Of a stretch of DNA of 64,000 nucleotides, positions 59,901-60,874 are shown piece by piece. The position numbers and the translations under genes were made by a program. The first letter of the stretch is position 1; the number at the start of each line of letters is the position of its first letter. The stretch is from a virus (lineage: Duplodnaviria > Heunggongvirae > Uroviricota > Caudoviricetes). Location: the IMG/VR virus record IMGVR_UViG_2721755646_000011; one strand, written 5' to 3'. The notes under the pieces are model-generated. The model was not told where the DNA came from. It searched no databases and saw only the letters and a program-made list of their open reading frames with translations.

Positions 59901-59922
59901 TAGCTAACCAACGAGGCTAATA

Positions 59923-60330
59923 ATGGAATTTAAAGATTTACCAACGCCATTACAGGAAATGGCATCGAATATAGTTCGTTCACAACTGGCTACTCTTGAC
60001 CTTAGTACCGCAGAAAAAGAAACCATCGATAATATGGTTCGTAATGTGCGCAATGCTTTTTCTGGGCTATATGGTTCTGATAATCAAAAGCAGGAAAGCG
60101 ATGTTAATAAACGGGTAATTTCTGTTTGCGTGAATGGCCATGTTCTTTCATCAATCAAAACAGAAACGGCGACAGTCTTCGATTGCCTTTGCATTGTACA
60201 GAGCCTTGTTGATGCCCTGTTTCGTTCAGTGAATTTAGAAAATGATGCAAATCTGCGAGGGCGCATAATAGCACATCCATATGCACATACTTTAGGCTCT
60301 GTGGATATCAAAGATCCCACAAATCTTTAA
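59923..60330 (+). CDS. hypothetical protein, first gene of an inserted two-gene cassette
   Basis: 135-aa ORF with GAGG RBS; absent from the paralogous locus in prophage 1. Confidence 0.45.
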   Translation: MEFKDLPTPLQEMASNIVRSQLATLDLSTAEKETIDNMVRNVRNAFSGLYGSDNQKQESDVNKRVISVCVNGHVLSSIKTETATVFDCLCIVQSLVDALFRSVNLENDANLRGRIIAHPYAHTLGSVDIKDPTNL

Positions 60331-60541
60331 TGAAATAGTTAACGCGAATTGTACTTGCTCTTTCGGTTGCTTTCAGAATACGCGTTGAAACTGCTGGCGG
60401 TAATTTGGTATTCCATTTATTAAAATCATGCCCGGGAAAGTACTCTTCGAAAATACTTTTAACTGCAGACTCGCCTATTGAAATGCTGCTTACCATGCGA
60501 TTTTGATAAAGGCATTTAGCAATAAGAGTTGATTTTAACAT
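60308..60541 (-). CDS. hypothetical protein, convergent partner in the inserted cassette
   Basis: 77-aa ORF with strong AGGAGGG RBS 6 nt before the ATG; 3' ends of the two genes overlap by 23 nt. Confidence 0.45.
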   Translation of the reverse strand: MLKSTLIAKCLYQNRMVSSISIGESAVKSIFEEYFPGHDFNKWNTKLPPAVSTRILKATERASTIRVNYFIKDLWDL

Positions 60542-60874
60542 TCACCCTCCTGAGGGTTGGTAATTAAGGAGTTCTCCACGGGTGAAGTGGAGTGCGTGCG
60601 CCGGACACGGGTGAACATCCGGCACTGACAGTTTACTGAAAGGATATTTCTCTGAAAAGTCAGAGCATAACGCGAAAGCGCACGGCGAGGTTGCTGGTTC
60701 ATAGATAGCCTGTCGTTAAATTTTCGTCGACCGTGCGCTTCCGGTTGTGGCACTCCGCGAAATGGCGCAGCGGTAAGTATGGCGGGGTTATTCCTTCCCC
60801 GTTGAGGACACCGGGTTGTCAGGTTGACCATACGCTTAAGTGACAACCCCGCTGCAACGCCCTCTGTTATCAAT

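Follow-up and report, generated by a model that had tools for sequence, protein, structure and literature searches.

A convergent, overlapping gene pair in a dicBF-type prophage operon, and its relatives in Enterobacterales prophages

The DNA described here is a 64,000-nt stretch of a Caudoviricetes virus (IMG/VR record IMGVR_UViG_2721755646_000011), called the window throughout, which carries two dicBF-type operons about 59.7 kb apart. In the second of these, copy 2, a cassette that is absent from copy 1 holds two small tail-to-tail genes, A and B, between ydfC and dicF, within the operon's long untranslated region. As in the dicBF operon of Qin-type prophages (PMC5069750), ydfC lies upstream of this site, dicF and dicB lie downstream, and the repressor is of the DicA type. 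The cassette itself is not canonical: the usual gene set (ydfA, ydfB, ydfC, dicF, dicB and ydfD) excludes it, the operon genes listed in PMC5069750 do not include its genes, and it is missing from copy 1 as well as from most dicF-type operon copies. Its G+C content is 39%, against 46-48% in the flanks. External loci compared with the window are designated L followed by a number.

The limits of the cassette come from two comparisons of the operon copies. In a search for direct repeats of at least 60 nt, the spacing between matching repeats steps from 59107 to 59741, a difference of 634, and pairwise alignment gives a single clean gap of the same length. An extra segment confined to copy 2, as the original prediction had proposed, is therefore borne out at exactly 634 bp, while the positions first given for it, 59919-60547, were off by a few bases (Table 1). 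In copy 1, GAAGCTAA joins GGTTGGTAATTAAG directly at the empty site, window position 813/814. In copy 2, GAGGCTAA is followed by TAATGGAA on the left, where the insert opens with TAATGG, and the insert ends in CCTGAG before GGTTGGTAATTAAG on the right. The segment had been called inserted, but the direction of change is not established, and a deletion from copy 1 or a replacement of alleles is equally possible. By eye, the junctions show neither a target-site duplication nor a terminal repeat; no repeat search was run on them, and a transposon-like insertion was rejected on that visual basis. The operons also proved less collinear than had been thought, since a second segment cannot be aligned (copy 1 at about 250-555, copy 2 at about 59240-59665); here, upstream of ydfC, copy 1 has ydfA and ydfB and copy 2 has an unrelated gene of 99 amino acids (aa).

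Table 1. Features of the cassette and its surroundings in the window, followed by the alleles found at the same operon slot in E. coli
Feature	Position	Strand	Remarks
Cassette, absent from copy 1	59921-60554		634 bp; repeat spacing and pairwise alignment
ORF A, 135 aa	59923-60330	+	WP_000394552.1, RefSeq hypothetical protein; reads in the direction of the dicBF operon
N-terminal domain of A, residues 1-55	59923-60087	+	predicted helical hairpin
A-core, residues 56-135	60088-60330	+	predicted beta-hairpin plus helices
3' overlap of A and B	60308-60330		23 nt; read from the sequence
ORF B, 77 aa	60308-60541	-	WP_000920491.1, RefSeq hypothetical protein; antisense to the operon
Shine-Dalgarno sequence of B, GGAGGG	60545-60550	-	four bases before the ATG
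Conserved dicF-upstream untranslated region	60555-60854		in both operon copies; repeat and genome searches
99-aa gene of copy 2	59310-59609		WP_001240336.1, hypothetical protein
Slot allele, 135 aa (A)			partner 77 aa (B); 23-nt overlap; window
Slot allele, 201 aa (A-core plus extension)			unrelated 63-aa partner; 23-nt overlap, same Shine-Dalgarno segment as B; L104-106
Slot allele, 208 aa			partner 69 aa; abutting; L109
Slot allele, 133 aa			partner 76 aa; overlapping; L112
Slot allele, 124 aa			no partner; L004
Empty slot			no plus-strand gene; copy 1

The coordinates confirm the gene architecture first read from the sequence, namely two tail-to-tail open reading frames (ORFs) of 135 aa on the plus strand and 77 aa on the minus strand that overlap at their 3' ends by 23 nt. 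Each has the good ribosome binding site ascribed to it, GAGG for A at 59913-59916, in the shared left flank, and GGAGGG for B, although no more than 13 nt of the DNA before B's start codon come from the insert. The overlap contains an inverted repeat, AAAGAT (60310-60315) and ATCTTT (60323-60328), and both proteins end in IKDxxxL. To survey linkage of the pair, hidden Markov models of A-core and B were run against ORFs from all six frames of 150 loci. Among the loci that B retrieved, only a 43%-identical Psychrosphaera homologue and one locus cut off by a contig end lack a convergent A-core; in the others the overlap is nearly always 23 nt, with 26 nt in a few, and the 23-nt form is also found in Serratia, Klebsiella, Proteus, Erwinia and others. 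B is likewise present in nearly all loci recovered through A-core, and a divergent Citrobacter lineage, some members of which have A-core fused to a ClpX-type zinc finger, shows an overlap of 51 nt. This near-obligate convergent co-occurrence across genera argues that A and B are functionally linked. Sequence comparison marks both ORFs as genuine genes and the A-core/B module as old and widespread in Enterobacterales prophages, not as a local novelty.

Compared across alleles and genera, ORF A resolves into a fusion of an E. coli-specific N-terminal domain (N-domain) and the conserved A-core. The N-domain is common to other E. coli alleles of 124, 133, 137, 201, 208 and 212 aa and has a dN/dS of 0.71. 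Homologues of A-core are stand-alone proteins of 77-85 aa from about 20 enterobacterial genera, with a dN/dS of 0.34 and, across 97 clusters, twelve invariant residues (N71, G72, T80, A83, D87, L99, L105, E106, A109, N110, G113 and H118). The AlphaFold2 model of A, with a predicted local distance difference test score of 71, shows an N-terminal helical hairpin and a core of a beta-hairpin plus helices as separate domains, with a disordered linker (residues 48-62) between them; the structure search returned no meaningful fold match for A. The protein has a grand average of hydropathy (GRAVY) of -0.17, and its core contains no arginine-rich or recognised DNA- or RNA-binding motif. A carries variable extra domains, among them the E. 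coli N-domain and, in Citrobacter prophages (P0187, P0229-P0231; L107, L108), a C4 zinc finger of the ClpX type (PF06689, 9.6e-10) N-terminal to A-core. This finger is the sole informative A-core fusion found, and it may serve as a dimerisation module or tie the protein to ClpX adaptor biology.

B is the better conserved partner in sequence comparison, with 57-72% identity against 34-40% for A-core and a dN/dS of 0.07-0.33. Homologues of 77 aa with 55-72% identity occur in Klebsiella, Serratia, Dickeya, Xenorhabdus, Morganella, Yersinia and Salmonella, and B is also found in Proteus and Photorhabdus. The family alignment has twenty invariant columns, including the whole N-terminal helix MLKSTLIAKCL, and the E. 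coli protein retains every one of these residues. Synonymous differences are present within the codons of this invariant helix; therefore, it is the protein itself that is conserved, and the substitution pattern points to purifying selection at the protein level. The model of B is all-alpha and soluble, with five helices and a GRAVY of -0.13, and most homologues are acidic (isoelectric point about 5). Its fold is confidently predicted and lacks a counterpart in the PDB, and a Foldseek search of the model against BFVD found only B's own family. An exhaustive profile search collected 163 B-like clusters. The two distant homologues that were read, one on a Colwellia plasmid-like contig and one in a marine integrative element, lack an A-core partner and stand alone in co-directional arrays of small genes; a search of the wider superfamily for informative domain fusions found none.

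Outside E. coli, the pair is found just downstream of a cI-type repressor gene (helix-turn-helix plus S24 peptidase). Prophages of Serratia, Klebsiella, Proteus, Erwinia, Hafnia and Citrobacter have A-core as the gene next after the cI terminator and a pL-like promoter, at the position that N holds in lambda. The operator motifs of each phage's cI-cro region recur between cI and A-core (L009, L011, L013), together with promoter-like sites upstream of A-core (TTGACG-16-TAAACT in L011, TTGACC-18-TATTAT in L013) and, in L011, a cI terminator. The pL-like position and the repressor operators together indicate that A-core is the first early-left gene and is expected to be under repression in the lysogen. 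Transcription can get to the early genes beyond the pair (YfdP, DUF2303, RdgC) only by running antisense through B.

The DNA upstream of B has features of its own. About 70 nt are kept among phages of different immunity, and the DNA beyond them diverges. This region contains TTTTCA-N18-TGnTATCTT, with an extended -10, and has no resemblance to repressor operators; we infer that it acts as the B promoter and that B is transcribed in the lysogen. In several phages (L005, L009, L013, L018, L091, L097 and others), an ACCAC-N5-9-GTGGT palindrome occupies the spacer of the putative promoter, and a second palindrome, TCTTGG-N11-13-CCAAGA, covers the start of the 5' untranslated region (UTR) and part of the B Shine-Dalgarno sequence. 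These could be operators or an RNA hairpin that controls B translation. An Rfam scan of the native B upstream region in L009 gave only noise, and RNA folding of this region gave z-scores of -2.2 to +0.2. In L009, a Serratia prophage, a 307-aa protein of the PADLOC candidate defence family PDC-S42 (5713-6636, minus strand; 1.2e-85) is encoded between cI and A-core.

Among 5426 complete E. coli genomes, the A-B cassette occupies 679 places in 659 genomes, while the dicF-upstream flank is found at 8014 places in 4083 genomes; thus, about 8.5% of dicF-type operon copies carry the cassette. This presence-or-absence comparison upholds the proposed variable prophage cargo slot, and in its variable presence and deviating G+C the cassette is accessory DNA that resembles phage morons. 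DNA coding for the N-domain is found at no fewer than 1840 places in 1518 of the genomes. Both ORFs are intact in 646 of the 659 cassette-bearing genomes, and for the most part the cassette sequence is 100% identical among the prophages integrated at ompW in Shiga toxin-producing E. coli (STEC) of serogroups O157, O26, O103, O111, O121 and O145. Two deposited phage records, PPompW and Evi, contain the cassette as well. A promoter for B in E. coli would have to sit in the conserved dicF-upstream region, on the minus strand of 60555-60854, and none was detected there. Homology between this right flank and the native B promoter region was considered and dropped, as the local alignment does not rise above shuffled sequences (z <= 2.9). 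No intrinsic terminator was found for the module. A 124-aa minus-strand ORF at 60535-60909 was rejected as a gene because it overlaps the conserved untranslated region of both copies; no protein search was run on it.

The slot between ydfA/ydfC and dicF is polymorphic (L104-L106, L109-L110, L111-L112, L004). Its plus-strand genes share an N-domain beginning MEFKDLP, and their C-terminal regions are unrelated. Most alleles have an unrelated small convergent partner of 63, 69 or 76 aa (phrog_2605, 4274 and 18692), and all slot-allele proteins fall in PHROGs of unknown function.

Taken together, the reading that we favour, at a probability of roughly 35%, is that B is a lysogen-phase accessory protein, plausibly for exclusion or defence, and A is an early-lytic antagonist that gives self-immunity. 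The cassette would represent, in E. coli, a two-gene module that is old among lambdoid prophages and whose products are made in opposite phases of the life cycle. In the lysogen, with pL off, B alone would be made. Upon induction or infection, transcription from pL would yield A and run antisense through B, and B would be shut down by polymerase collision or antisense RNA. Such a two-state device is suggested by the gene linkage, the fixed convergent 3' overlap, the pL position of A-core and the operator-independent region upstream of B. The assignment of B as effector and A as antagonist is preferred because B is conserved and autonomous, because A evolves fast and swaps domains, and because the locus lies in a known defence neighbourhood, that of BstA and RexAB (PMC8585504). 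In E. coli, the module would have moved into the DicA-repressed dicBF operon, where A gained its N-domain and B lost its native promoter region, and the toggle would work there only if the flank drives B transcription.

Several known systems share parts of this design. In phage P22, the sieB/esc/sas region reportedly includes an exclusion gene that lies in the pL region and is expressed in the lysogen; an antisense transcript made early is said to free the phage's own lytic growth from its effect, much as proposed here for B and A. However, sieB is said to be co-oriented with pL and its antagonist to be an in-frame internal product plus a small RNA, whereas B is antisense to the pL operon, and sieB/esc/sas is not known to be related in sequence to A or B. 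Toxin-antitoxin systems of types I and II also consist of two small, tightly linked genes on mobile elements with one partner better conserved, and some type I systems, such as txpA/ratA, have 3'-overlapping convergent transcripts. Type II systems consist of co-oriented, co-transcribed genes with known toxin or antitoxin domains. Unlike these, A and B are convergent with separate upstream regions, and neither shows a known toxin, antitoxin or DNA-binding domain in Pfam, NCBIfam, PADLOC or PDB sequence and fold searches. Type I systems pair a small hydrophobic peptide with a non-coding antisense RNA, whereas both partners here are conserved proteins under purifying selection and neither is small and hydrophobic. 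The earlier suggestion of a toxin-antitoxin or anti-phage module accordingly survives in part: the pair is linked, uncharacterised and variable cargo, but it forms no classical toxin-antitoxin operon and matches no defence model, and an anti-phage role is one that we infer.

Defence loci next to cI offer a closer neighbourhood. The rexAB genes are co-transcribed with cI. Both the BstA and RexAB loci lie downstream of the gene for the cI repressor in lambdoid prophages, and bstA is expressed from the prophage during lysogeny (PMC8585504). The A-core/B pair resembles them in its place immediately downstream of cI outside E. coli, in its accessory distribution, in the concept of prophage defence with cognate self-immunity and in the PDC-S42 gene beside it in L009. 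It differs in that it has no homology to them, in that BstA self-immunity comes from a DNA element, aba, and not from a protein, and in that A-core, behind pL, would be repressed whereas bstA is expressed in the lysogen. In Staphylococcus aureus phage 80alpha, the small overlapping antisense gene ith encodes an inhibitor of the prophage defence protein Tha, and this arrangement makes the two states mutually exclusive, as is needed to balance immunity and autoimmunity (PMC11087260). The pair described here likewise belongs to the accessory DNA of prophages, and in it, too, a small antisense gene overlaps a gene of an operon within a prophage regulatory region. Under the proposed model its life-cycle states would also be exclusive through antisense transcription, with one product inhibiting the other so that induction does not bring autoimmunity. 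Unlike Tha, which is a HEPN RNase, A and B have no HEPN domain or other Pfam or PADLOC domain, and the two systems share neither sequence nor fold similarity. Additionally, the cI (lysogenic) operon of phage 80alpha contains the defence gene, and the inhibitor is encoded antisense to it; in the present pair, by contrast, the gene in the operon, A, is the lytic one under cI repression, and B, in antisense, comes with a promoter-like region to itself. The phages differ as well, being staphylococcal in one case and lambdoid phages of Gram-negative bacteria in the other.

Several observations weigh against the favoured reading. Homology points to no biochemical activity of A or B, and the polarity of the pair is opposite to that of Tha/Ith. 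The profile and structure searches recommended for both proteins were run: Pfam, NCBIfam and PADLOC gave nothing above noise for either, PADLOC-DB v2 gave no match at E <= 1, and PDB sequence profiles and fold comparisons gave nothing. The 77 residues of B contain no recognisable catalytic motif. Linkage also has its exceptions, as A-core occurs without B in the 201-aa E. coli allele, in L122 and in L125, and single-gene decay has gone both ways, with B lost in L007 and L099 and A lost in L146-148. In the native setting, the B promoter-like element falls below the scan threshold (8/12 hexamer matches), and in E. coli a scan of the window found no sigma-70-like promoter for B, for which the insert gives so little upstream DNA.

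The same searches bear on novelty. Both proteins do match PHROGs, phrog_1363 for A (4.8e-47, residues 1-130) and phrog_10348 for B (1.1e-47, residues 1-77), each of unknown function, so the earlier view that neither resembles a recognised family stands for Pfam, NCBIfam and PADLOC and needs this amendment. Neither protein turned out to be well characterised and the cassette is not invariably present, two outcomes of the opposite kind having been named in advance as grounds for abandoning the idea. A literature search by RefSeq accession, operon and defence terms returned nothing on either protein. No publication, curated family, defence model or solved structure was found that covers A or B, while the architecture itself has precedent.

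The most serious competitor keeps the expression pattern and reverses the roles. Here, A would be a host-directed or host-toxic immediate-early protein, constitutive B would neutralise the little A that leaks from its repressed promoter, and upon induction A would outrun B while antisense transcription silences B. Strict pairing suits this account, as does a physical overlap that prevents separation by recombination. The slot alleles also pair a variable C-terminal region with their own small antisense gene (201/63, 208/69 and 133/76 aa), like effector/immunity pairs, and the neighbouring early-left dicB and dicF are themselves toxic division inhibitors (PMC5069750). An antidote that is better conserved than its target and occurs alone in distant mobile elements would be unusual, however, and faster evolution with exchange of domains, a pattern typical of antitoxins and inhibitors, is seen in A. 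A-core without B in several loci, the loss of B beside an intact A in L007 and L099, and the lack of a toxin-like domain in A by Pfam, PADLOC and fold searches also speak against a toxic A. Although this account is unlikely when taken by itself, it fits the expression logic and the allele-specific partners equally well and is only moderately less likely than the favoured one.

Two further explanations assign the proteins a smaller part. The face-to-face pL and B promoters, with or without the proteins, might tune early-left read-through or the lysis-lysogeny decision, and in E. coli the expression of dicF and dicB. A-core does sit at the lambda N position, downstream early genes are reached only through B, one palindrome marks the B promoter spacer and another, in the 5' UTR, overlaps the Shine-Dalgarno sequence, and the E. 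coli cassette lies in the long untranslated region from ydfC to dicF. A purely regulatory role is nevertheless disfavoured because the module is accessory and portable, with about 8.5% of dicF-type operon copies carrying it, two different operon positions and no native B promoter in E. coli, and because selection on B acts at the protein level, which implies a selected protein function and not transcription alone. A-core moreover lacks a nucleic acid-binding motif of the kinds sought and most B homologues are acidic; this explanation is quite improbable. The E. coli cassette might instead be a carried-over remnant of little or no function, in which B is silent because it has no promoter and A is merely co-transcribed when a largely defective prophage is derepressed. 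It is consistent with this that the window contains no promoter-like site for B, that the native 70-nt upstream region is missing, that the flank's similarity to it is not significant, and that the downstream exonuclease gene appears interrupted relative to L001. Intact ORFs in nearly all carriers, complete identity across several STEC serogroups, presence in PPompW and Evi, retention by B of all family-invariant residues and a strong Shine-Dalgarno sequence before B make a mere remnant improbable.

Beyond the favoured reading lies a bolder and rather doubtful proposal, in which A-core/B would be a new prophage defence family whose self-immunity comes from a protein. In that case B, with its 77 residues and unseen fold, would be the effector or sensor made in the lysogen, A its immediate-early antagonist, lone A-core a counter-defence gene, the 3' overlap a life-cycle switch, and the E. 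coli slot a set of polymorphic cognate pairs. If that polymorphic-pair logic is true, the slot would be comparable to effector-immunity loci, and it offers further candidate pairs. If the toggle model holds, Gram-negative bacteria would have in this module a counterpart of the antisense noncontiguous operon, which keeps prophage immunity and autoimmunity in balance, and it would be built from two protein families without known relatives. At about 0.5-0.7 kb the module is small and easy to clone, and it is widespread among prophages of Enterobacterales and fixed in major STEC lineages. Products of dicBF affect cell division and phage resistance, and in enterohaemorrhagic E. coli they have been reported to affect virulence regulation; an antisense gene at this place could modulate dicF or dicB expression.

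Other features were observed around these loci. In L125 (2741-3034, plus strand; 2831-3031, minus strand) and L122 (2474-3025, plus strand; 2819-3103, minus strand), the A-core without B precedes, or is fused with, a gene homologous to the 99-aa gene of the window. Inside that homologue, in both loci, lies a wholly antisense, conserved zinc-ribbon ORF (CxxC...CxxC, 66-94 aa), which is not antisense in the window; the two may form another antisense gene pair. Rfam scans of the cassette and its flanks returned only DicF and sub-threshold STnc100. The DicF of copy 2 (60876-60925) reaches 43.5 bits and so falls short of the Rfam gathering score, 48, while that of copy 1 (1135-1186) reaches 76.7 bits; the two diverge in the 5' half of the small RNA. 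The STnc100 matches lie between dicF and dicB in both copies, at 60914-61119 (32.5 bits) and 1184-1391 (39.8 bits), against a gathering score of 47.

The exonuclease gene (YdfE / Exonuclease VIII-like) appears split in the window into a 542-aa ORF (61569-63197) and a later ORF (63704-64000). In strain PV15-279 (L001) it is a single coding sequence of 823 aa; over 6.9 kb, the L001 sequence and the window show 24 gap positions and 2 mismatches. An IS1203 element at 1914-3126 of L001 breaks the replication-gene region of the same prophage in that strain and is absent from the window. Elsewhere in the window, at 35948-36433, a 162-nt unit is repeated three times in tandem, the later copies having 93% and 67% identity to the first.

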